DNA of 24,443 nucleotides from the UHGV virus genome UHGV-0098506. One strand, 5' to 3'. Below, one piece after another: positions 1-9,172 of the stretch (position 1 is the first letter of the stretch; every line of letters starts with the position of its first letter). This stretch comes from a virus. Made by a program: the position numbers and the translations under genes. Below the pieces are notes generated by a model. The model worked only from the letters and a program-made list of their open reading frames with translations, was not told the DNA's origin and did no database searches.

Positions 1-35
1 GAAGGTCGTAGGTTCGACTCCTATTATCGGCACCA
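1..35 (+). tRNA. 3'-terminal fragment of a tRNA gene (T-arm, acceptor stem, CCA), most likely tRNA-Thr (thrW-type); serves as the prophage attachment-site core (attL side)
   Basis: Window opens with GAAGGTCGTAGGTTCGACTCCTATTATCGGCACCA: GGTTCGACTCC is a canonical T-loop/T-stem and the 3' end carries CCA. From memory it matches the 3' end of E. coli/Salmonella thrW, a known lambdoid/P22 integration site. An integrase gene ends 15 bp away. Confidence 0.7.
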
Positions 36-49
36 TTTAAATCAATAAG

Positions 50-1210
50 TTACCTAGCATTTAAGTAAACCACGTTCTCCTCTTGTGCCGTATTTGTGCC
101 ATTGCGACTTATAATCGCATCGATTTTGCTCGCGTGCTCGGTGAGATGCCCGGCTGAAAGGTGGGCGTATCTTTGAACCATTTCGAGAGTTTCCCATCCT
201 CCCATCTCTTTAAGTGCAAGAAGAGAGACACCGGACTGAACCAGCCAGCTTGCCCAGGTATGCCTCAGGTCATGGAAGCGGAAGTTGCTAATGCCTGCCC
301 GCTTTAACGCTCCCTTCCATGCCTTGTTGCTGTCGGTTCTCATCTTCCTTACCGCTGCTGTTTTTGTTCCGTCGCTTCGGTAGGCAGGTTTGGTGTGGAC
401 AAATACCCATCTCTTATGGAGCCCCTGCTGTTTTCTTAATATCTGGCATGCGGTTTCGTTAAGAGGAACTCCGATCGCATTGCCAGCTTTTGTTTCATCA
501 GGGTGCATCCATGCCATTTTCTTATCCAGATCGACCTGTGACCACTCAAGGTCTGTAACGTTGGAACGGCGAAGGCCTGTCGTGATTGCAAACATGACCA
601 CAGGGAAGAAATGAGGAGCAATTTCTGCAAACAGGCGCTTCGACTCCTCCTCTGTAAGCCATCTGATTCGTCCATTCTTAACGCGTGGTGTTGATATTTT
701 GGGCGCCCTGTCAAGCCATCCCCATTCAACAGCCATATTGAGAATAGCGCGAAGTATTGCCAGATGCCGCGTCTTCGTTCCTTTACTTGCCAGCTTTGGT
801 TTATACTCCGGCACTGGCTTGCCAAGCCGCAAACACCTGTCCCGGCTCATCTCCCAGTTCAGGCGATGGCGGCGGTTTTCCATCCCGTCTACCGCCTCCA
901 TTATTTTTTCTGTTGTTATGTCAGAGAGAATGGTTTCTCTGAAGTGCAACATCCAGAACGATATAATGCTCTTGTCATCATCAATGGACTTCTTATCCGA
1001 TTTCTCACGCAGCCACCGTATGCAGGCTTCCTTGAATAGCTTTTTCGGTGATTCCCCGAGATTTTTTACTCTCCACGCTTCTGCTTTCAGACGATCGTGA
1101 AGTTCTTGCGCTTGCCTTTTGTCCGATGTTTCAAGAGAGCGTCTAACTCTTGATCCATCTGGCGCGACGAAATCACAGTGCCACGTGCCACCGCGTAGTT
1201 TGATTGACAT
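50..1210 (-). CDS. int: Tyrosine site-specific integrase (P22/lambdoid Int family)
   Basis: 386-aa ORF next to the tRNA fragment. C-terminal region contains RFHDLRHTWASWLVQSGV...LKEMGGWETLEMVQRYAHL, the R..H-x-x-R...Y catalytic signature of tyrosine recombinases. N-terminal region resembles P22 Int as I recall it. Confidence 0.9.
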   Translation of the reverse strand: MSIKLRGGTWHCDFVAPDGSRVRRSLETSDKRQAQELHDRLKAEAWRVKNLGESPKKLFKEACIRWLREKSDKKSIDDDKSIISFWMLHFRETILSDITTEKIMEAVDGMENRRHRLNWEMSRDRCLRLGKPVPEYKPKLASKGTKTRHLAILRAILNMAVEWGWLDRAPKISTPRVKNGRIRWLTEEESKRLFAEIAPHFFPVVMFAITTGLRRSNVTDLEWSQVDLDKKMAWMHPDETKAGNAIGVPLNETACQILRKQQGLHKRWVFVHTKPAYRSDGTKTAAVRKMRTDSNKAWKGALKRAGISNFRFHDLRHTWASWLVQSGVSLLALKEMGGWETLEMVQRYAHLSAGHLTEHASKIDAIISRNGTNTAQEENVVYLNAR

Positions 1211-1434
1211 GCTTTAACCTCCTGCACATCAACCGCATTCACCGCGCTATTGTGTCTCACAGACTTAAGCGCCGCAATGCAGTCTGACTTGCAAATGCGA
1301 TATGGACTTTTAGGTTTATCTGGATTTATCTTTGCGGCCTGAAGTCGTCCACTTCGTATCCACTGCGTGATAGTGCCTTTGTCTACCTTCAGATACGATG
1401 CTGCCTCTTCACGAGTGAAGATTTCTTCTTCCAC
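1087..1434 (-). CDS. xis: Excisionase (Xis, ~115 aa, P22-size class), GTG start with a GGAGA Shine-Dalgarno
   Basis: ORF immediately upstream of and overlapping int by ~124 nt in another frame. N-terminal EEAASYLKVDKGTITQWIRSGRL is a helix-turn-helix typical of excisionase/AlpA-family proteins. Position is the classic xis-int one. Confidence 0.7.
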   Translation of the reverse strand: MEEEIFTREEAASYLKVDKGTITQWIRSGRLQAAKINPDKPKSPYRICKSDCIAALKSVRHNSAVNAVDVQEVKACQSNYAVARGTVISSRQMDQELDALLKHRTKGKRKNFTIV

Positions 1435-1519
1435 TTGGAATCTCCATTTATTGAGTTGGTATTATTGCGGTAGGTCTGGATATCTTGAGAAATGAACAGG
1501 CCTCATCGAGTGTGAGGCG

Positions 1520-1864
1520 TTAGTCCTTGCGTAGCTCGCTAATTCTTCTGTAAGTCTCTGGTGCTTTGTTTTCGTGTATCTTCATTTCAGACTTCAACAG
1601 AGCAACGAGCGAATCCCATTCGTTGAGGATGCCTTTGAATGCCGGAACGCGCTTTGCAACCTTGTCGAATGAATCTCTGATTTCTGGAATCTGCTCAACA
1701 AGTGCAACGCATCGCCGGAAATCGGCTGCATCATGTGGAGCGCCGAAGTGATGACCATAGATATTCTTTTTCAGTCCACATGCGATTGAGGCAAGAGTTG
1801 CGCTACTGATGCCGACATCGCCAGTCGATTGCCATTTCAAAACCTTCATAGCCAAATCTGACAT
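1520..1864 (-). CDS. Hypothetical early-left accessory protein (114 aa)
   Basis: ATG at 1864 preceded by GGAGA. Sits downstream of an intrinsic terminator. No family recognised. Confidence 0.55.
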   Translation of the reverse strand: MSDLAMKVLKWQSTGDVGISSATLASIACGLKKNIYGHHFGAPHDAADFRRCVALVEQIPEIRDSFDKVAKRVPAFKGILNEWDSLVALLKSEMKIHENKAPETYRRISELRKD

Positions 1865-1902
1865 TTCTTGTCTCCATAAAACAAAACTCGCCGTAGCGAT
1901 TT

Positions 1903-1935
1903 CAGATAAAAGAAATCCTCGCGAGTGCGAGGATT
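1903..1935 (-). terminator. Rho-independent terminator (leftward transcript)
   Basis: On the minus strand: AATCCTCGC-ACTC-GCGAGGATT hairpin followed by TCTTTTATCT. Confidence 0.5.
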
Positions 1936-1964
1936 GTTATTCACCTTTGACGGCAAGTTGCAGG

Positions 1965-2600
1965 TTAGCCACGGTTAACCTCCCACGGCGGTTCTGGTAG
2001 AGGCATCCAGTGGGTTACACCGTCAATTGGTTCGTCGTCGTCGTACTCCAATGCGGCCATATAGAACCCGTCACGACGAGAATAAGAAATCCCTGACATT
2101 ACAATGCCATCCGAAACAACAATAATGTCACCCGTTTCTTCCGGCATTCGCTCACTACAGCTTATCCAACCATCCGGAGTTACCGGAGAGTTGCCGGGTT
2201 CTTTAATGTGCAAGAGAGGTTCACCATCTTTTGGCTCAGGCCACTGGCGCTCCATGTTGATCTTCAATTTATCTTCCATAGCAGCGGTAATTTCAGCATC
2301 GCTGATGCCAGCACGGAGCTGTGCATCCCACAACAGAAACTGCATATCAGCCCACTCGCTAAGATCGTCTGGTTCGGCTGCGGCTTCCAGTGCCTCTTTT
2401 GAGAGGTGTTTCAGTGGACCAATGGGGCCAACGCAGCCAAATGTGGAGTCAGACCATTTGGCATGCTCGTGGCGAATCTGTTCGCGTTCCAGTGATGCCA
2501 GTGCAATTCGTGCTAGTTCCATTTGTTCGCCACGAGTAAGCCCGTTTTCAAGCGGATTTTTAATGAACAATTCAATACGTTCTTTGGTAATAGTGGTCAT
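1965..2600 (-). CDS. Prophage accessory protein: N-terminal MazG-like dATP/dGTP pyrophosphohydrolase-type domain (DUF550-like) plus C-terminal DUF551-like domain
   Basis: 211-aa ORF with AAGGAG Shine-Dalgarno before ATG at 2600. C-terminus has DGWISCSERMPEE...WMPLPEPP, reminiscent of DUF551. N-terminus (KHLSKEALE...EWADMQFLLWD) resembles the DUF550 family. Domain assignment is from memory. Confidence 0.6.
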   Translation of the reverse strand: MTTITKERIELFIKNPLENGLTRGEQMELARIALASLEREQIRHEHAKWSDSTFGCVGPIGPLKHLSKEALEAAAEPDDLSEWADMQFLLWDAQLRAGISDAEITAAMEDKLKINMERQWPEPKDGEPLLHIKEPGNSPVTPDGWISCSERMPEETGDIIVVSDGIVMSGISYSRRDGFYMAALEYDDDEPIDGVTHWMPLPEPPWEVNRG

Positions 2601-2610
2601 GTGTTACTCC

Positions 2611-2874
2611 TTAACCCGCAGTGCTTTCAACTGATGAGGGGAACAAAATCTTTTCATCAAACCCTGCATTCATATCATGAACAGCAACACACCAATCCAC
2701 CGACGAACGATTATCAAGAGCCTCCATGATTTCATCCATGCGGCGTAGGTCATACAGGTAAATGCTTTTATCGCCAATGGTGTAAAAACCAATTTTTTTC
2801 GGTGATGGGCAGCGATCAAGAACGTCCTGTAATTCGTTCAACCATGCCCGTTCTTTTTTTGTTAAAGTTGCCAT
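2611..2874 (-). CDS. Hypothetical protein (87 aa, MATLTKKERAWLNELQDV...)
   Basis: ATG at 2874 preceded by AAGGAG (6-nt spacer). Start lies 1 nt after the stop of the upstream gene. The longer ORF-track start at 2907 lacks a Shine-Dalgarno. Confidence 0.55.
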   Translation of the reverse strand: MATLTKKERAWLNELQDVLDRCPSPKKIGFYTIGDKSIYLYDLRRMDEIMEALDNRSSVDWCVAVHDMNAGFDEKILFPSSVESTAG

Positions 2875-2875
2875 A

Positions 2876-3289
2876 TCACTCTCCTTTGATGCGAATGCCT
2901 GTTGCAATGCTGTTTATGATGCTGTCAGTGCATGGGGTAGAAAGCTGGGCATCTCCAGCAATTTTCATGACCTCAACATCTGCATATCGAATACCGAGGT
3001 GTATCAGACCGGCTATACCTGACTTAAGCCGAGCATTTTCCATAAACAGATCCTTTGCCCGCTGTTTTTCTGCTTCAAGCTCAACACGCAGTTTCCCAAC
3101 CGTTAGTGCAATATCCTCGTTCTCCTGGTCGCGGCGTTTGATGTATTGCTGGTTCCTTTCCCGTTCATCCAGTAGTGCCAGCACAACCTGAGGTGTGACC
3201 TTCATACGAAATGCCAGCAATTTTTGTGGTGTGGCTGCTATTTTTATTGCTTCTGCCGCATCACGCAGTGCCTGATAGTCAATTGTCAT
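2876..3289 (-). CDS. Ea22/Ead-like coiled-coil protein
   Basis: N-terminal MTIDYQALRDAAEA is the hallmark start of lambdoid Ea22/Ead-family proteins, followed by a coiled-coil-like segment (ELEAEKQRAKDL). ATG at 3289 forms an ATGA overlap with the upstream stop. Confidence 0.6.
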   Translation of the reverse strand: MTIDYQALRDAAEAIKIAATPQKLLAFRMKVTPQVVLALLDERERNQQYIKRRDQENEDIALTVGKLRVELEAEKQRAKDLFMENARLKSGIAGLIHLGIRYADVEVMKIAGDAQLSTPCTDSIINSIATGIRIKGE

Positions 3290-3930
3290 TCTCGCCATCC
3301 TTCACAGTTGTAATCACTACAGCCTTCAAAATCATATGGGCTGTACTGCCAGGAGATTTTTCCGCAATGCGGACAATTCCAACGCACCTTCCCGCTTCGC
3401 GACTTCTTTCTTCTGTTCTGCTCTTTCAACCAGTCAGGCATGACCAAACCTGCGCCCTGAACCATTGTTCTGCGGTTAAAGTTATTGATATTGAACGTCC
3501 TGCGCTTTGCTGCATCAGCAATGGAAAATGGCAACCAAACTATTCCTGGTTCGTTTTTGTTGGCGACGCTAAAGATGGTCGCTTTACTGAAGTCATCTGT
3601 TGGCAATCCACCGTGTTGAAGCCAGTAAACATCGTTGCCGTTCCAGCTACCTTTTTTGTAGGCCACATACGCAGTGCAATCTGACTCAATCAGGCTTTCT
3701 GTAGGGATGTACTGGCAATCAACGTGCCACACTGCCATTGCATCCACGCTATCAGCGCAAACAGGCTGATCGATATCTCGCCCACAATTCCAGGCTTTTT
3801 GGGCTTCTTCCAGCGTGTAAACATGAGCGCGATCGATATCAGAACTGTAACCATTGCCGTTATGGCAATGGAATGAAGCGTTATTGCCCACAGTTTCACG
3901 CGAGCACATCATGTAAAAACGGTTAGTCAC
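3286..3930 (-). CDS. Hypothetical Cys/His-rich protein (214 aa) with C-terminal CxxC...C..C zinc-ribbon-like motif
   Basis: GTG start at 3930 preceded by AAGGAGG at optimal spacing. Sequence ends NCPHCGKISWQYSPYDFEGCSDYNCEGW. No known family recognised. Confidence 0.55.
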   Translation of the reverse strand: MTNRFYMMCSRETVGNNASFHCHNGNGYSSDIDRAHVYTLEEAQKAWNCGRDIDQPVCADSVDAMAVWHVDCQYIPTESLIESDCTAYVAYKKGSWNGNDVYWLQHGGLPTDDFSKATIFSVANKNEPGIVWLPFSIADAAKRRTFNINNFNRRTMVQGAGLVMPDWLKEQNRRKKSRSGKVRWNCPHCGKISWQYSPYDFEGCSDYNCEGWRE

Positions 3931-3947
3931 TGGCTGCCTCCTTTGCG

Positions 3948-4112
3948 CTACATCGCATTCAGATATTTGTTGTCATTAACAGAGCTGAAACTATTTCTCT
4001 TAAGCAATTCCTCTCTCGATGGCATTGGCTTTACGCGTTGGCGAATAATCATTTCTGCCGGAAGAATGCCGGGATTGTATGCAAGTCCTCTCATGGTAAA
4101 TTCCTCAGTCAT
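3948..4112 (-). CDS. Small hypothetical protein (~54 aa, [26 protein letters not shown]...)
   Basis: ATG at 4112 overlaps the stop of the upstream ORF (ATGACTGA); a second in-frame ATG at 4094 is preceded by GAGGAA. The ORF-track start at 4244 gives a longer version that overlaps the upstream gene. Confidence 0.3.
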
Positions 4113-4398
4113 TACTGATAGCGCCATAGCGTGAGCGGTAATTACGCAGGCGCGGGTCAATTTCAGGGAAGTGGGTATATGTGGCTTTGCGGAATGGTCG
4201 GATTGATGTCTGGTAAATTCGCTCGCGTTCTTCTTTCTCTGCAAGCCATATACAGTGGCGAAATTCCTTTTCCTCTTTCGTTTCCTGCGGTAGCGACATT
4301 ATCCGATCGTAGTTTTTTCTGAATTTATCCAGCACCTCCGATACGGAATTGCCGGAACAGCGGCGCGGGTCGTCCTCACCATACAGAGGCGCTGGCAT
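4105..4398 (-). CDS. Hypothetical protein (97 aa)
   Basis: ATG at 4398 preceded by AAGGA. Begins 24 nt after the ssb stop, same strand. Confidence 0.5.
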
Positions 4399-4421
4399 AA
4401 TGGAATCCTTATGTTGCTACT

Positions 4422-4820
4422 TTAGAAGGGAATTGAATCGTCGTATTCAGGATGATTTTGATGATTGCTACTTTGCTGCTGTTGGCTGTTTCCTGAAGTT
4501 GCAAATCCAATCTTTGCATTCAGTAATTCAAGAGTGATTGATTGACCATTTTGCCCCTGATAAACATCAACCCTGATGTTTTCTCCGGTAATTTCCACAA
4601 TGCCACCTTCAACAAGAACACTACGGTAGTAATCCGCTTGCGCTCCCGGCTTGGCAAATACAACGGCGCTGTAGTTTGTCCATTCTTTCTTTTTTGTCAG
4701 GCGATCGTAATACTGAACTCCAGCACGGATGTTGAATCCGATATTTTCCCCGGCCTGAAACTCTCTTGCGGGCTTGTTTAGTCTTACAGTAATCGAGTGT
4801 GCCATTAAGCAGCCGCTCAT
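4422..4820 (-). CDS. ssb: Single-stranded DNA-binding protein (SSB family)
   Basis: C-terminal acidic tail ...PEYDDSIPF matches the SSB C-terminal D-D-D-I-P-F motif, preceded by a Gln/Gly-rich linker and an OB-fold-like N-terminus. ATG at 4820 overlaps the erf stop (ATGA coupling); alternative ATG at 4805. Confidence 0.8.
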   Translation of the reverse strand: MSGCLMAHSITVRLNKPAREFQAGENIGFNIRAGVQYYDRLTKKKEWTNYSAVVFAKPGAQADYYRSVLVEGGIVEITGENIRVDVYQGQNGQSITLELLNAKIGFATSGNSQQQQSSNHQNHPEYDDSIPF

Positions 4821-5410
4821 TCTAATTCGTCTCGTCTTATGTTGTAAACGTCCTGCGCTTTGTGCTGCTCCGGTGTGCCTTCGAGCATCTTCCACGCTTT
4901 GGCGAACGCCTGTTTAAGCTCTTCCACGGTGTTTTTCTGCATTGCTGCGTCAGTGAATGCTTTTAGAACCTGTTCAGGTGTAGGTGATGGTTTTGATTGC
5001 TTTGCTGCTGCGTTCTGCTGATGTTTATGCTCGTCGGTATCTGCATCTTTCGCATCATCAATGCCGAATAAACCATTGAGGCAATACTTGCGTGCATAAG
5101 AGCTTGTAGCTCCAGTAACTTGTGCAGAATCCATTCCTTTCTTGCTTTCTTCCTCTCGTGCAAGAGCGGTTGCCGTATGACTGTTTTCGCCATCGGTAAT
5201 AGTTGCCGTGGCTTTCACGTAATACCGATCACCAATCAACACAACTTCATCGCTGATTGATAAAAACAGGCCATTCAGTAACGGCTTAACGCCTTCAAGA
5301 ATGTCTTCGCAGCTTCTGTATTTATATTTGCCGAATGAGTTGTACTGATTCTTTGGCGCGTTCAGATTCTCCTGAATGGCTGCCAGTCTTGCGTAAAATT
5401 CTTTGCTCAT
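4817..5410 (-). CDS. erf: Erf-family single-strand annealing recombinase
   Basis: N-terminus from the internal ATG (MSKEFYARLAAIQENLNAPKNQYNSFGKYKYRSCEDILEGVKPLL...) closely matches P22 Erf as I recall it. The longer ORF-track start at 5440 is a TTG. Confidence 0.85.
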   Translation of the reverse strand: MSKEFYARLAAIQENLNAPKNQYNSFGKYKYRSCEDILEGVKPLLNGLFLSISDEVVLIGDRYYVKATATITDGENSHTATALAREEESKKGMDSAQVTGATSSYARKYCLNGLFGIDDAKDADTDEHKHQQNAAAKQSKPSPTPEQVLKAFTDAAMQKNTVEELKQAFAKAWKMLEGTPEQHKAQDVYNIRRDELE

Positions 5411-5511
5411 ATGTTTGTTCTCAGAATGGACATGGCCCAAGGAAATAACGCTGGTTTAATACTTCGACTCTGGACAAATTAAGGCATACCCGCATTCCTT
5501 CGCGGTCGCCA

Positions 5512-5670
5512 TTATGGCGATACCAGAGAGCTTTCTGCGTGTACATGCGTCTCTGTAACTTGCTCTCCTTCACTGTGGTTGCAAGTGACATGAATATCTC
5601 CTTCGTTACCGATTAATTCTTTCATCTGACGAATGAATTCTTCGTCTGACCAGTTATCCGTAAAACTCAT
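5512..5670 (-). CDS. Small protein (52 aa) translationally coupled to the cIII-like gene; occupies the kil-like position
   Basis: ATG at 5670 overlaps the stop of the upstream cIII-like ORF (ATGA). The kil-like label is by position only, not sequence. Confidence 0.4.
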   Translation of the reverse strand: MSFTDNWSDEEFIRQMKELIGNEGDIHVTCNHSEGEQVTETHVHAESSLVSP

Positions 5671-5837
5671 GGACGGCCTTGTTGTTTCAAAATATCCCAA
5701 AGCTTTTCGAGCAAACTTTTCACTCTTGGTTGTTTAAAGTCTGCTCCGGTTAAAATATTTTTTCGTGAATGCTGTACCGATAAAATCGGGTTGAAAGGGC
5801 GAACCGATGCCGCCCCTGCAATAGCGAACTGTTGCAT
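5667..5837 (-). CDS. cIII: cIII-like protein (56 aa; FtsH-inhibitor family), below the 60-aa cutoff of the ORF track
   Basis: Translation MQQFAIAGAASVRPFNPILSVQHSRKNILTGADFKQPRVKSLLEKLWDILKQQGRP. N-terminus MQ-FAIAG matches lambda cIII (MQYAIAG...) and the size fits. ATG at 5837 preceded by AAGGAG. Confidence 0.6.
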   Translation of the reverse strand: MQQFAIAGAASVRPFNPILSVQHSRKNILTGADFKQPRVKSLLEKLWDILKQQGRP

Positions 5838-5912
5838 AGGATGCTCCTTCTGTTTGATTGCATAACGAAAACGCCTCGAGTGAAGCGTTATTGGTATGCG
5901 GTAAAGCCGCGC

Positions 5913-6224
5913 TTAGGCGGCTGATGTTTCTTCTTTCAGGCTTTCGAGATATTTACGTGGGTCGTCGTAACATTGGCATTCGCTGTACCAATCCACCCAG
6001 CGATCAGTAAGCCCCATCTCTGATAAATCTTCATCGGTAAGGCTCTCATCCCACATCTCAAGGCCGTTAGCATTGCAGTAATCAGGCTTGATGTTGTTGT
6101 CATACTGAAAGGCGTCATAATCAGCCAGTGCGTCCATCAGGCGAACACCCTCTTCAACACTTGCCACTTCTACGATGAACGGCTTCATCGGTACTTGCGG
6201 GATATGCCAGACACGTAATTTCAT
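5913..6224 (-). CDS. Hypothetical acidic protein (103 aa, MKLRVWHIPQVPMKPF...)
   Basis: ATG at 6224 preceded by GGAGAA, immediately after an intrinsic terminator. The longer ORF-track start at 6278 would run into that terminator. Confidence 0.55.
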   Translation of the reverse strand: MKLRVWHIPQVPMKPFIVEVASVEEGVRLMDALADYDAFQYDNNIKPDYCNANGLEMWDESLTDEDLSEMGLTDRWVDWYSECQCYDDPRKYLESLKEETSAA

Positions 6225-6235
6225 ATTTTCTCCGT

Positions 6236-6263
6236 TAAAAAAATCGCCCTCACACTGGAGGGC
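6236..6263 (-). terminator. Rho-independent terminator (tL1-like) between the N-proximal unknown gene and downstream early-left genes
   Basis: Minus strand: GCCCTC-CAGTGT-GAGGGC hairpin followed by GA and T7. A second 9-bp stem hairpin (GTGTATTCA...TGAATACAC, 6325-6352) precedes it. Confidence 0.6.
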
Positions 6264-6367
6264 AAAGAAGATTTCCAATAATCAGAACAAGTCGGCTCCT
6301 GTTTAGTTACGAGCGACATTGCTCCGTGTATTCACTCGTTGGAATGAATACACAGTGCTTATTCGTA

Positions 6368-6838
6368 CTAATAAAACACCCAGTTTTCTGTTTCTTGGTT
6401 GTGTCCAAAGTTATATTCAATATCTGGTGTTGATGTATCAATATTCTTCATCCCATCAACAAGAGTTGATACAACAGCCAAATCTTGTTTGATTCTCATT
6501 AAATGGTATTTCTTCCGGCGCAATAAACTTTCAATGGCAAGTTTCTTCGTTGGGAATGCAAAAGATCTTTCTGCATTTTTTGCTACTTTCTTAATTGCAT
6601 ATCTATTTCTCTTTTGTTTCCATTCCTGTAACCACCGATTTGGTGCTGGTTTAAAATTAACAATCCAATGCGCAGGAACCAACCATGCATAATGCTCTGT
6701 CTGATGAAAAGCTATATATTGAAGTGCGAATATTTTGATCCCATCCTCTTCAACTGCCGCATGGAATCTCCAGAAAACAGGCATTCCATCATGTTCAGTT
6801 TCTGATTCAGGAAAAGGTACGCTCCATGATTTTGTCAT
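6368..6838 (-). CDS. Hypothetical protein (156 aa), AT-rich gene directly downstream of N
   Basis: ATG at 6838 preceded by GAGGTGAG, 9 nt after the N stop. Coding region is visibly AT-richer than its flanks. No family recognised. Confidence 0.6.
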   Translation of the reverse strand: MTKSWSVPFPESETEHDGMPVFWRFHAAVEEDGIKIFALQYIAFHQTEHYAWLVPAHWIVNFKPAPNRWLQEWKQKRNRYAIKKVAKNAERSFAFPTKKLAIESLLRRKKYHLMRIKQDLAVVSTLVDGMKNIDTSTPDIEYNFGHNQETENWVFY

Positions 6839-6846
6839 ATCTCACC

Positions 6847-7146
6847 TCAAATAAGTGGTTTGCTGCCTAATTTCATTTTTTGGCGACCAACACAAGTCAC
6901 ACCCATTTCACTGCGTGGCTTGCGGTAGTAAATACGATTCTGTTTATGCTCGACTTCTTCTGCCTTCTTGCAGCGAAGGCTTCCGAGTGATGCTGCTTTA
7001 TCTGCTCTGACGCAACCAGAGAGCTTTAGCGCAATCTTTCGCGCCAGTCGCTGCTCTTGCATTGCCTGTTCACGTTGAGCCTGTCTGCGTGCTCTGCGGC
7101 GATTTCTGGCGTTATCGTCAGCCAGATATGTAATGACTACTGTCAT
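6847..7146 (-). CDS. N: Antitermination protein N (lambda-N family)
   Basis: From the internal ATG (MTVVITYLADDNARNRRRARRQAQREQ...) there is an arginine-rich motif at the N-terminus. C-terminus RIYYRKPRSEMGVTCVGRQKMKLGSKPLI parallels the lambda N C-terminus. GGAGG Shine-Dalgarno before ATG at 7146. Confidence 0.8.
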   Translation of the reverse strand: MTVVITYLADDNARNRRRARRQAQREQAMQEQRLARKIALKLSGCVRADKAASLGSLRCKKAEEVEHKQNRIYYRKPRSEMGVTCVGRQKMKLGSKPLI

Positions 7147-7159
7147 GTTGACCTCCGAT

Positions 7160-7230
7160 GAAACAACTTTGGAATTGATAGTGATTGCAAAGTTGTTTCT
7201 GGCCCCTCGAATTGAGGGGCAGAAAGAGCA
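7160..7230 (-). promoter_or_regulatory. Structured N leader: 12-bp-stem hairpin adjacent to the N Shine-Dalgarno plus a second boxA/boxB-like element
   Basis: Minus strand reads TGCTCTTT-CT-GCCCCTC-AATTC-GAGGGGC, then GAAACAACTTTG-(16 nt)-CAAAGTTGTTTC, then ATCGGAGGTCAAC-ATG. This resembles the RNase III-sensitive leader hairpin of lambda N. Confidence 0.4.
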
Positions 7231-7457
7231 TCTCGCCACCTAATAGTTCGATGCTCGGATCGATAGATTTAATTAACCTCGGTTTTGAAGTTATGCATTC
7301 ACATAAATCCTCCTGTTGCATGTGCAGCATTGGCTGTGTTTGGCGGCTGCATTTCGCCTATGGAATTGACTTTGGCGGTGACGCGCCGGGTGCTTATCTT
7401 CCGGTTGCCGTCGTGCAGCTGCACTTCACGTCACCCCAAAGCCAACTACTCTTTGGT

Positions 7458-7498
7458 TCCCGCATTTCGGCGGGACAATCCCATCAATGTTAAAGAGC
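7458..7498 (-). promoter_or_regulatory. nutL (boxA GCTCTTTAACA plus boxB hairpin TCCCGCCGAAATGCGGGA on the leftward transcript)
   Basis: The same boxA-spacer-boxB arrangement occurs on the plus strand at 9129-9172 between cro and cII. Paired identical copies in the pL and pR leaders define the nut sites. Confidence 0.65.
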
Positions 7499-7544
7499 CT
7501 GCCAATCTGTTCCGTTTGGCTACCAGCGTCCTGCTGATGGCTAA

Positions 7545-7629
7545 AGAATACTGTAGGTATTTTATTGTGTAAATACCCAAGGTATTTATTTTTGGTGAAA
7601 TAATGATAAGCAAATGAATACAAAGGATA
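7545..7629 (-). promoter_or_regulatory. OL/pL: three 13-bp operators (ATAC-N5-GTAT family) overlapping a leftward promoter (-35 TTTACA, 17-bp spacer, -10 TATTCT)
   Basis: Operator-like sites at 7548-7560, 7573-7585 and 7617-7629 share ATAC...GTAT half-sites with those in OR. Promoter hexamers on the minus strand at 7568-7573 and 7545-7550. Confidence 0.55.
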
Positions 7630-7718
7630 TTTATTTTTTTCGGTGTCTGCTTGTTCAGTGCTTTTTATGCGGGATATGTGAAGTGGATCCCGATAGCTAT
7701 TGCTGCCGGGATTATAGG

Positions 7719-8087
7719 TTAGTCAGCGAAGGTTAAGACGAGAATTACCTTAATGATGTCTGCTACAACAGACACGGCCATAGATAAACCAAAGACGATC
7801 CAAGCCACAGTGATGTCTTCACTACCATCGTATAGAGTTCCGTAATCACTGGTGTAAGGCGTAAATGTCGCGCCTTGATACAATAGGTATAAGCTTGATC
7901 CATAGAGGATAAATGCAGATATCCCTTGTATTGCTATGATCACAAGAATCATGAAACGAGCTGATCTATGCGCCCAAGCCTGGCTTATTTTTTCTGATAG
8001 AGATTTCGCAATAAAAGCATGCGCTAAGCCGTAAATTGTCGAGATTGCCAACATCCCAAAAAAGCTTGCTATAGCGGTTCCAACCAT
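7719..8087 (-). CDS. Small multi-pass membrane protein (~122 aa) behind cI on the same strand; function unknown (candidate exclusion/abortive-infection protein)
   Basis: Starts 17 nt after the cI stop with AAGGGG 6 nt before ATG at 8087; the ORF-track start at 8108 is a TTG overlapping the cI stop. Three to four hydrophobic segments (AIASFFGMLAISTIYGLAHAFI, FMILVIIAIQGISAFILYG, VAWIVFGLSMAVSVVADIIKVILVL). Confidence 0.6.
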   Translation of the reverse strand: MVGTAIASFFGMLAISTIYGLAHAFIAKSLSEKISQAWAHRSARFMILVIIAIQGISAFILYGSSLYLLYQGATFTPYTSDYGTLYDGSEDITVAWIVFGLSMAVSVVADIIKVILVLTFAD

Positions 8088-8104
8088 AAGCGCCCCTTGC
8101 GTGA

Positions 8105-8821
8105 TCAAACCAGCCTTAGTTTTGTCTCAATTGCAACGCCTATAATCTTGCAGTTTCCATTGATTGGCACGAGAGGCCATGCAGGATTAAGTCCCTTGAG
8201 GTATTTATTTCCGCCGTCGATTATCAGCTTCTTGAATGTTGCTTCGTTAGAGTCAGAAAGTTTTGCTATGACCAAGCTGCCGTTGATCGCCTCCCTTCCG
8301 GTATCGAAAAGAACGAATGTTCCCTCTGGAATGCTTAACCCAACCGGTGCCGTCATTGAATCACCTTCCACTTTAAGCCAAAACGCATTACCTTGAATAT
8401 GCGCGTCAGACTCAAGCCAAACATCTATGTCTTTAATGGTGTATGGTTCGCATGCTTCACACCACGAGCCAGCCTGGATACTGCTTAACACCGGATACCT
8501 CTTTCCTGCTCTGTATTCCCCTGCATACCTTACGTTGGCATCGCTCTTAAGGCTTTCTGCCTGTTCTGCAACCTTGGCAGCAATTGACTGGCTAAAATCA
8601 GCAATTGAGACTTGCAACAATCGTGCAAAACCAGATGCAACCTCAACGTTTAGCGCGTTTCTGCCATTAAGATAATGGCCTACCGCTCCTTGGGTGATAC
8701 CCAGTTCATCAGCGATTGAGTATTGGGTTATTCCCAATTCTTTCTTTTTTGACTCATACAAAGCCTTAAGCCGCTTAGCGTCTTCCAGCTGTTCTGTCGT
8801 CAGTGATTTTTTATTTTCCAT
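8105..8821 (-). CDS. cI: CI-type prophage repressor (N-terminal HTH, C-terminal S24 LexA-like autopeptidase domain)
   Basis: N-terminal HTH (ELGITQYSIADELGITQGAVGHYLNG). Candidate Ala-Gly cleavage site followed by S24 motifs (GDSM...GTFVLFD...KKL). Divergent from cro across an operator region. Confidence 0.9.
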   Translation of the reverse strand: MENKKSLTTEQLEDAKRLKALYESKKKELGITQYSIADELGITQGAVGHYLNGRNALNVEVASGFARLLQVSIADFSQSIAAKVAEQAESLKSDANVRYAGEYRAGKRYPVLSSIQAGSWCEACEPYTIKDIDVWLESDAHIQGNAFWLKVEGDSMTAPVGLSIPEGTFVLFDTGREAINGSLVIAKLSDSNEATFKKLIIDGGNKYLKGLNPAWPLVPINGNCKIIGVAIETKLRLV

Positions 8822-9128: not shown

Positions 9129-9172
9129 CGCTCTTTAACAGTCATGGTCCTCATTCCCGCCGAAATGCGGGA
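9129..9172 (+). promoter_or_regulatory. nutR (boxA CGCTCTTTAACA plus boxB hairpin TCCCGCCGAAATGCGGGA)
   Basis: Consensus boxA 7 nt after the cro stop. boxB is identical to the nutL copy. A further hairpin GCGCAT-AAGTTG-ATGCGC follows at 9178-9195. Confidence 0.65.

Follow-up and report, generated by a model that had tools for sequence, protein, structure and literature searches.

Seven early-left genes between xis and ssb of a lambdoid viral genome: a probable mosaic accessory region containing an orphan family, phrog_2457, with a putative zinc ribbon

What are the seven closely packed genes that lie between xis and ssb in the viral genome UHGV-0098506, do they work as one system, and does any one of them merit particular attention? 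The genes, abc2, DUF2737 and ORF-E through ORF-A, occupy positions 1520-4398 of a stretch of 24,443 nucleotides (nt), the whole of which is referred to as the window. An earlier note, made from the sequence alone, had listed seven minus-strand open reading frames (ORFs) here, and all seven are present. We conclude, with a probability of about 75%, that 1520-4398 is the promoter-distal, mosaic accessory end of an N-antiterminated lambdoid pL operon, composed of exchangeable cassettes rather than a single system. Lambdoid phages carry shuffled, non-essential early genes in this place, and abc2 is a textbook gene. The block as a whole is an ordinary lambdoid accessory region, and phrog_2457, the family to which ORF-E belongs, is its sole element of real interest.

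The window belongs to a lambdoid (HK97/mEp213-like) prophage or phage, of which it comprises the left arm and the early region. A megablast search with positions 1-8000 matched 649 phage records, headed by mEp213, mEp043, HK542, HK446 and Stx phages, and the top records aligned at ∼97% identity over ∼50% of the query. The minus-strand order is N-like gene, phrog_1636 gene, gp17-like gene, cIII, erf, ssb, abc2, DUF2737, ORF-E, ORF-D, ORF-C, ORF-B, terminator(s), ORF-A, xis and int.

The seven ORFs are real genes. All (7/7) match PHROG families, with E values from 1e-33 to 1e-119, and 4/7 match Pfam families. Four sequences, those of ORF-A, ORF-B, ORF-C and ORF-E, were looked up in a public protein collection, and all four were already there in exact form; that of ORF-E came from 966 contigs. 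The ORFs share one strand, carry ribosome-binding sites (RBSs) and are tightly packed throughout. DUF2737, ORF-C and ORF-A are short and have no known function, and DUF2737 has a premature stop compared with its relatives, so one might ask whether the small ORFs are genes at all. We consider it hardly credible that they are not. The three match PHROG or Pfam families at E values of 1e-28 to 1e-52, all three have a properly spaced RBS, ORF-A and ORF-C keep their length and sequence down to 51–60% identity in other genera, and the AlphaFold2 (AF2) model of ORF-C is confident.

Good RBSs and several ATGA-type overlaps had been described for this block. The RBSs were confirmed, but only one ATGA overlap, that of the ORF-E stop with the ORF-D start (3289-3286), remains because the ORF starts were corrected at three boundaries. 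ORF-C starts at ATG 2874 and encodes 87 amino acids (aa); its phrog_1714 match begins at residue 12 of the ORF as first drawn. ORF-D starts at ATG 3289 and encodes 137 aa. The 98-aa ORF at 3948-4244 was over-extended, and the DUF2737 gene is 3948-4094, with no overlap with abc2. The ORF-D/ORF-C junction reads TGAtATG, and the remaining junctions are gaps of 10–17 nt with the RBS inside.

The earlier note had given only two of the genes even a tentative identity, Ea22-like for ORF-D and DUF550/DUF551-like for ORF-B. Both identities hold, but the count was wrong, since 4105-4398 encodes Abc2 and DUF2737 is itself a Pfam family. Its picture of a block of unknown genes fits four of the seven products (DUF2737, phrog_2457, phrog_1714 and phrog_1229), which have no known function; it does not fit the first gene, the characterised abc2. 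NCBIfam gave no match for the block proteins. Sequence and profile searches of the PDB found no relative of ORF-A, ORF-B, ORF-C, ORF-D, ORF-E or DUF2737, and Abc2 was the sole success. The literature search turned up no functional study of the genes that lack a known function.

The evidence that these genes are separate cassettes comes from comparative genomics. Neither a phage record nor any of the 5426 complete E. coli genomes searched has ≥80% of positions 1400-4500 in one place; 3578 of the E. coli genomes match some part of it. The prevalence of the genes in the same genomes differs four-fold, from 1100/5426 for abc2, 979/5426 for ORF-C and 940/5426 for ORF-A to 271/5426 for ORF-E, which is on plasmids in 175/281 places. 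Context was sampled in 80 IMG/VR loci that carry ORF-E at 96–100% identity. Its companions there were DUF2737 (26 loci), abc2 (19), an ORF-B-like gene (15), ORF-A (11) and ORF-C (6), and the gene upstream of the near-identical ORF-E belonged to at least nine unrelated families. The joint GCGCAAAGGAGGCAgCCAGTGA (3931-3947) precedes ORF-E in the window; in mEp213, which has no ORF-E, it precedes the Ea22-like gene. The genes are thus cassettes that move independently, with conserved joints at RBSs and terminators between them, and ORF-E is one that stands alone, its point of insertion being a conserved RBS/start joint. The synteny comparison that the earlier note had proposed shows variable, independently exchangeable members, and its description of a non-essential, mosaic accessory region of the lambdoid early-left operon holds. 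The 214-aa mEp213 protein gp35 (645 nt) was considered as an ORF-E homologue and rejected. It aligned as an Ead/Ea22-like protein, the equal length is coincidental, and the tblastn list for ORF-E does not include mEp213.

The opposite reading, that the seven genes form one co-functioning anti-defence operon, draws on the tight one-strand packing, on the single start/stop overlap and on the membership of Abc2, a known counter-defence protein. We regard it as very improbable. Each of the seven genes occurs without the others, a terminator divides the block, and the absence of any genome with ≥80% of it, the unequal prevalences and the changing slot upstream of ORF-E all argue the same way, so that comparative genomics has largely refuted a single system already. 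The earlier note had expected anti-defence genes to be enriched here. One counter-defence gene is indeed present, namely abc2; for the ORFs without a known function such a role is suggested by context. PADLOC, run on eight proteins, returned 0 families at E≤0.01. PADLOC contains defence families and not anti-defence families, and this null excludes the former alone.

The terminator that divides the block is intrinsic and lies at 1904-1935 on the minus strand, 30 nt past the ORF-B stop. It has a 9-bp (base pair) stem, AATCCTCGC/GCGAGGATT at 1935-1914, with 5 G-C pairs and a 4-nt loop, and a tail, UUUCUUUUAU, that extends to 1904. The RNA fold has a free energy of -20.8 kcal/mol (z -3.96), and 0/200 shuffled sequences were as stable. 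A second, weak hairpin on the same strand at 1878-1899, TCGC-TACG-GCGA followed by GTTTTGTTTT, was read by eye and is uncertain. It falls below the five-pair minimum of the terminator scan; in relatives the stem has 5 bp (CTCGC/GCGAG). Another weak terminator-like hairpin, with 6 pairs, a 7-nt loop and a poor T-tail, lies after ORF-A and before xis (1500-1518, minus strand). In other phages the 1935-1904 terminator cassette follows varied genes, and the gene after it is ORF-A in some and a lambda-p35-like gene in others. ORF-A has a different terminator (AAACCGCCTGATGGCGGTTTTTTT) in front of it in mEp213 and E. coli FXCREC035. The terminator at 1935-1904 is a conserved mosaic joint, and in all the arrangements that we looked at a terminator comes between the upstream cassettes and the group of ORF-A, xis and int. 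A consensus scan found no promoter before ORF-A.

The operon starts with an N-like antiterminator gene (6847-∼7150, minus strand; phrog_271, 1.1e-37), whose product also matches PF25694 weakly (0.0016, under the cut-off). Two nut-like sites were found by eye. The candidate nutL (7455-7499, minus strand) has a boxA-like sequence, GGCTCTTTA, and a CCCGC-CGAAAT-GCGGG hairpin; the candidate nutR (9129-9137, plus strand) is an exact boxA, CGCTCTTTA, just before cII. Because an N-like antiterminator and nut-like sites are present, pL transcription is expected to run through the terminator, which would otherwise insulate ORF-A, xis and int. By analogy, the seven genes would be made from pL within minutes of infection or induction, N-modified RNA polymerase would read through 1935-1904, and ORF-A, xis and int would be reached under antitermination alone. 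The earlier note had seen the internal terminator and had proposed sub-operon regulation. The terminator exists, and the regulation is plausible solely in this standard lambdoid sense.

The first gene of the block, abc2 (4105-4398, minus strand), encodes anti-RecBCD protein 2, of 97 aa. It matches PF11043 over the full length (1-97/97; 4.3e-63) and phrog_656 (1.5e-54), and phmmer aligned residues 1-97 with P22 Abc2 (PDB 8B1T/8B1U; 8B1T chain A) at 1.3e-57 and ∼90% identity in the alignment. The orthologue is named ‘phage anti-RecBCD protein’ by PGAP. P22 Abc2 blocks the Chi activation of RecBCD. The gene is the last of an erf-ssb-abc2 module, with ssb and then erf immediately upstream, and 4105-4398 belongs to this neighbouring recombination module and not to the accessory cassettes. 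A Rec module made up of a single-strand annealing protein (SAP), a single-stranded-DNA-binding protein (SSB) and an anti-RecBCD protein has been described for lambdoid phages, and Abc2 binds RecC (PMC12315714). By its similarity to P22 Abc2, for which this is established, the window protein would bind RecC and re-programme RecBCD for phage recombination by Erf and SSB.

ORF-E (3286-3930, minus strand) encodes the 214-aa phrog_2457 protein from a GTG start at 3930. It does have the strongest Shine-Dalgarno sequence of the block, as the earlier note had it: AAGGAGG, the longest match, placed 6 nt before the start. The protein consists of an acidic, two-lobed N-terminal region (residues 1–150), a very basic helix/linker (151–180) and a C-terminal Cys4 zinc-ribbon motif, C186-x2-C189 ... 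C204-x4-C209 (3304-3375, minus strand). Residues 1–80 have a net charge of -6 and residues 151–180 one of +5.8. In 91 full-length relatives with 21–49% identity, C186, C189 and C204 are conserved in 93–96% and C209 in 80%, and in some members of the family the second Cys pair is CxxC. The earlier note had stressed a Cys-rich protein. Its C-terminal CPHCG...C....C motif is indeed conserved, but the other six Cys are not, and the richness is incidental. Residues kept in ≥85% of the 91 are G15, G27, Y28, A43, P56, D71, Q73, G98, N99, A117, R143, C186, C189 and C204; D100 is kept in 82%.

An AF2 model of ORF-E, built from a 36-sequence alignment, had a mean confidence (pLDDT) of 93.4 and a template-modelling score (pTM) of 0.77, with strands at 182–185 and 192–195 in the putative zinc ribbon. 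Foldseek searches of the PDB and BFVD with this model returned only fragments of homologues and no fold relative. Pfam, NCBIfam and PADLOC had no match either. When residues 1–82 were aligned with residues 83–150, local hhalign gave an E value of 0.0036 at a probability of 9% and global alignment gave nothing; an internal duplication of the N-terminal region is suggestive only and is not claimed. The family profile over residues ∼153–206 matched ribosomal protein eL43 of several species at E values of 0.1–2, which are not significant.

The family is widespread. A word-indexed search yielded 160 homologues of 209–231 aa, none with a Pfam domain, and an exhaustive search yielded 857 representatives at E<1e-3. 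Four relatives have extra parts, and these contain no Pfam domain. By tblastn the gene is in 161/50,697 phage records, among them P7 (Upf87.6), P1 variants, SJ46, IME10, Av-05, many Vibrio phages, F116 and Burkholderia phages. The family was also found in 409 plasmids and in 51 species-level genomes that extend from Kluyvera to Shewanella, Aeromonas and Pseudomonas. Identities range from 21 to 79% across Enterobacterales, Vibrio, Acinetobacter, Pseudomonas and Methyloprofundus. The E. coli plasmid copies are mostly on P1-like phage-plasmids. The family is already abundant in databases, yet it is unnamed and has neither a Pfam model nor a fold match in the PDB. As a side observation, a homologue with 50% identity lies at 6001-6648 of our loci L010 and L011, which come from ∼565-kilobase (kb) metagenomic contigs, amid dozens of small ORFs without Pfam matches. 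Such a contig may be a segment of a chromosome or else a very large phage.

One existing annotation offers a function for this family. The P7 record carries the note ‘putative tyrosine protein phosphatase’ for Upf87.6, and residues 20–32 of ORF-E (FHCHNGNGYSSDI) fit the PROSITE-style pattern [LIVMF]-H-C-x2-G-x3-[STC]-[STAGP]-x-[LIVMFY]. Of the 91 members, though, 46 have Ala at position 22, 17 have Gly and only 5 have Cys, position 21 is mostly Trp instead of His, and no phosphatase model in Pfam or NCBIfam matches ORF-E. The HCxxGxxxS match is spurious because Cys22 is usually Ala. There is next to no chance that ORF-E is a tyrosine phosphatase, and for the family the reading is refuted.

Genomic context offers other leads. 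In P7, Upf87.6, which is 98% identical to ORF-E, is in an operon behind the C1 operator. In Vibrio phage D80 an exonuclease gene and a Mu-Gam-like gene come before the homologue and a DNA methyltransferase gene after it, and in F116 three methyltransferase genes are beside it. A cI-type repressor gene and an integrase gene flank the homologue in Vibrio H8 and in 8–11 of the 51 species-level loci. MOBH conjugative plasmids of Citrobacter, Klebsiella and Providencia carry ∼52% identical copies in long one-directional arrays of small genes (7001-7618 in L092, 6992-7651 in L093, 8001-8660 in L095 and 9001-9618 in L100). A Lar-family restriction-alleviation gene and CcdAB occur in these arrays, or else the array ends at psiA, 1.5–2 kb off. 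Plasmid leading regions are rich in anti-defence genes (Samuel et al. 2024, PMC11541004). The thread common to these contexts, we infer, is early expression on entry.

The most regular neighbour of ORF-E is an Ead/Ea22-like gene. It comes next in 78/79 loci with ORF-E at 96–100% identity, usually starting on the ORF-E stop codon, and the pairing recurs in P7 (upf87.6/upf88.3) and in P1-like plasmids. Given that lambda Ea22 is pro-lysogenic (PMC10834534), the two proteins could form an obligate coupled module, for example a DNA binder and a coiled-coil oligomeriser acting in the lysis-lysogeny decision. This we find improbable. The pairing is limited to near-identical enterobacterial copies and is perhaps a co-inherited block that ends inside the Ea22 coiled coil, and the Ea22-like proteins vary from 39 to 98% identity where ORF-E stays at 96–100%. 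F116, Acinetobacter, Vibrio H8 and D80, Methyloprofundus and a 564-kb contig have some other gene downstream, one with no relation to Ea22; copies on MOBH plasmids are without an Ea22 neighbour, and mEp213 joins DUF2737 straight to its Ea22-like gene with no ORF-E. Co-inheritance of a block most simply accounts for the neighbour.

A second frequent neighbour is a family of 190–250 aa that resembles ASCH proteins and is marked by the motifs KTQTRR, PGDRLWVRETW, PSIHMPRWASR and ANPWVWVIEF. It lies on the same strand 0–1.3 kb upstream of ORF-E in 38/80 IMG/VR loci, as alleles that are 40–99% identical beside a near-constant ORF-E. In F116, Acinetobacter indicus, Rheinheimera and Candidatus Pantoea borealis it is directly adjacent to the homologue, in either order. 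Located examples are P7 upf86.8 (L003, 3174-3755), F116 p07 (L004, 3327-4004) and the genes at 6644-7393 in L007, 2064-2729 in L006, 4478-5173 in L096 and 4427-5008 in L059. Both families are rare among the 50,697 phage records (349 for the ASCH-like family, 161 for ORF-E), and Pfam ASCH matched 2/6 ASCH-like members weakly. These observations, with the likeness of the ORF-E tail to the rRNA-binding protein eL43, would agree with an RNA-directed factor or enzyme that acts with an ASCH-like (PUA-fold) partner, e.g. in the modification, repair or protection of tRNA or rRNA. The window itself has no ASCH-like gene, however, and only 4/51 species-level loci have one within 6 kb. ASCH genes are common in such accessory regions, so that the enrichment may reflect the region and not the function; the eL43 similarity is not significant, and no catalytic motif can be named in ORF-E. 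We therefore rate this specific proposal as no more probable than the Ea22 module, and take the ASCH-like neighbour as a lead towards an RNA- or nucleic-acid-directed function, not as proof.

The function we prefer for ORF-E is broader than either pairing. The protein would most likely act early, as an ‘establishment’ protein whose basic helix and putative Cys4 zinc ribbon bind nucleic acid. In the model, the conserved polar residues Y28, D71, Q73, N99, D100 and R143 would form a pocket of a novel N-terminal domain that binds or modifies a ligand or a host factor. We put nucleic-acid binding at even odds, and a counter-defence or host-takeover role is possible but doubtful. More speculative still is the full proposal, that phrog_2457 is a new-fold zinc-ribbon effector of the first minutes, common to temperate phages, phage-plasmids and conjugative plasmids, which neutralises or evades nucleic-acid-targeting defence, or re-programmes host RNA or DNA metabolism via the pocket, and which has an ASCH-like partner in some lineages. 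Taken whole, we think this unlikely, though worth stating.

Several points count against the function preferred for ORF-E and against the operon reading given at the outset. The statement that ORF-E has no known fold covers the PDB and BFVD. The likeness of its tail to eL43 appears to be resemblance, a weak one, and not homology. The MOBH arrays resemble a plasmid leading region as judged by the proximity of psiA and Lar, and several of the plasmid matches are phage-plasmids or prophages and not leading regions. With so many unrelated neighbours, the context of ORF-E is weak evidence, and our literature search found no paper that mentions the phrog_2457 family. As for the operon, boxA with one mismatch is not enriched (7 sites against 5.6 expected), and the nut call rests on short motifs. 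Read-through by N would follow from lambda biology, from which it is extrapolated.

The gene upstream of ORF-E, DUF2737 (3948-4094, minus strand), encodes 48 aa. It matches PF10930 at 2.7e-28 and 98 bits (cut-off 25), with ORF residues 51–98 on model positions 1–48, and phrog_1117 at 5.2e-33. Its RBS, GAGGA, overlaps the abc2 stop codon. Aligned with its counterparts in mEp213 and E. coli FXCREC035, the gene shows a TGG>TAG change (3950-3948) that costs it 7 residues compared with the 55-aa relatives. In those relatives the DUF2737 TGA overlaps the GTG of the next gene (GTGA); this overlap is gone in the window because the change truncates DUF2737.

Downstream of ORF-E, ORF-D (2876-3289, minus strand) encodes a short Ead/Ea22-like protein of 137 aa, with residues 5–109 on positions 2–139 of PF13935 (1.7e-21). 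It has an N-terminal segment and a coiled coil and lacks the lambda-type C-terminal domain (CTD; 137 aa against 182 aa for lambda Ea22), and is a truncated Ea22-type coiled coil. Searches of the PDB at E≤10 gave at most chance coiled coils for ORF-D, and the lambda Ea22 CTD was not matched. Its first 81 residues are 75% identical to those of P7 Upf88.3, with which it also has the last 9 residues in common. The lambda Ea22 CTD has a structure solved by nuclear magnetic resonance, CTDs vary among Ea22 variants, and tetrameric, pro-lysogenic activity applies to lambda and Stx-phage Ea22 only (PMC10834534).

ORF-C (2611-2874, minus strand) encodes an acidic protein of 87 aa (isoelectric point, pI, 4.8) that matches phrog_1714 at 4.1e-50. 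Its 132 homologues come from prophages of Enterobacterales only, and every one is annotated ‘hypothetical’. The AF2 model (pLDDT 91.1) is a small alpha/beta domain.

ORF-B (1965-2600, minus strand), of 211 aa, has two domains. Residues 42–137 (nt 2190-2477) cover the whole PF04447 model at 2.6e-40 and 137 bits (cut-off 23), and residues 144–205 (nt 1986-2171) match DUF551, PF04448, at 2.5e-15 and 57.5 bits (cut-off 22). PF04447 is the MazG-like dATP/dGTP pyrophosphohydrolase family formerly called DUF550. The acidic motif ExxE...ExxD, which binds metal in MazG-type enzymes, can be read off the translation as E69-x2-E72 ... E82-x2-D85. A sequence search against solved chains found no relative of ORF-B. 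The protein would be a MazG-like nucleotide pyrophosphohydrolase fused to DUF551 and probably hydrolyses a nucleotide pool.

The last gene, ORF-A (1520-1864, minus strand), encodes a basic protein of 114 aa (pI 8.95) that matches phrog_1229 at 5.1e-52. Its 63 homologues, all ‘hypothetical’, are from Escherichia, Cronobacter and Citrobacter only. It is always next to xis, and in mEp213 and FXCREC035 it adjoins xis/torI. A homology of ORF-A with DUF550, suggested by one apparent fusion protein (P0376), was rejected, as P0376 is a deletion chimera of two neighbouring genes in a decayed prophage. Six other ORF-A ‘fusions’, with Erf, Ea22 and Kil, are probably chimeras of the same kind.

The remaining minus-strand genes of the operon complete the map. 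The phrog_1636 gene (6368-6838; 156 aa; 6.1e-110, no Pfam match) comes directly after the N-like gene, and a P22 gp17-like superinfection-exclusion gene (5913-6278; PF17420, 1.2e-55) lies between the N-like gene and cIII (5667-5837). Two small kil-region genes separate cIII from erf (4817-5440), and an HK97-gp40-type SSB gene, ssb (4422-4805), follows. Beyond the block are xis (1087-1434) and int (50-1210). To the right of the operon are cI (8105-8821), cII, a DnaB-type helicase gene and Q. A phrog_6534 gene (7719-8108, minus strand; 122–129 aa, 2.9e-79), with no PADLOC or Pfam match, is probably co-transcribed with cI in the lysogen because it overlaps the cI stop by 4 nt. The position beside cI often holds exclusion or defence genes in lambdoid prophages. 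In the window (1-24443) there is no tRNA gene and no Rfam family at the gathering threshold, and Chi (GCTGGTGG) occurs 0 times on both strands against 0.5 expected, which is uninformative.

The value of the analysis lies in a corrected gene map, in the demonstration of independent cassettes and in the singling out of one orphan family. Should phrog_2457 prove to act in counter-defence or establishment, it would be a new class of protein for phage infection and for the spread of plasmids, including those that carry resistance; if not, it is a further piece of viral dark matter.

Single genes of the window can be set beside well-studied counterparts. The 4105-4398 product agrees with P22 Abc2 in its length of 97 aa, in end-to-end alignment and in its position on the erf side, but the window has no abc1, and an HK97-gp40-type SSB gene stands between erf and abc2. 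ORF-B covers all of PF04447, named after the phage dATP/dGTP pyrophosphohydrolase MazZ, and has the acidic motif of the MazG-like/MazZ family; it differs in its DUF551 fusion and in a phage without a Z-genome (purZ-type) context. The tail of ORF-E, like eL43 (L37ae), has a basic helix followed by CxxC...C(x2-4)C, whereas its 150-residue N-terminal region has no counterpart in eL43. The arrays around the ∼52% identical homologues, with Lar, CcdAB and psiA, can be likened to the anti-defence islands of plasmid leading regions (PMC11541004), although PADLOC does not include the ORF-E family and we did not come across its name in the papers searched. The nearest relation of ORF-E is P7 Upf87.6, 98% identical, in an early repressor-controlled operon and with an overlapping Ead-like gene next; the genes before it in P7 are an ASCH-like one and a small zinc-ribbon one instead of DUF2737 and abc2.

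For the block as a whole the comparison is with the lambda exo-xis and P22 ‘ea’ region. The gene content differs almost wholly from that of lambda: orf60a, orf61, orf63, orf73 and ea8.5 are missing, ORF-D is without the CTD of lambda Ea22, and the Rec module is Erf/SSB/Abc2 instead of Exo/Beta/Gam. The layout is nevertheless the same. The position between the Rec module and xis-int, the strand and the N-dependent early logic all match the window, and both regions consist of non-essential, mosaic small genes that include an Ead/Ea22-type protein.

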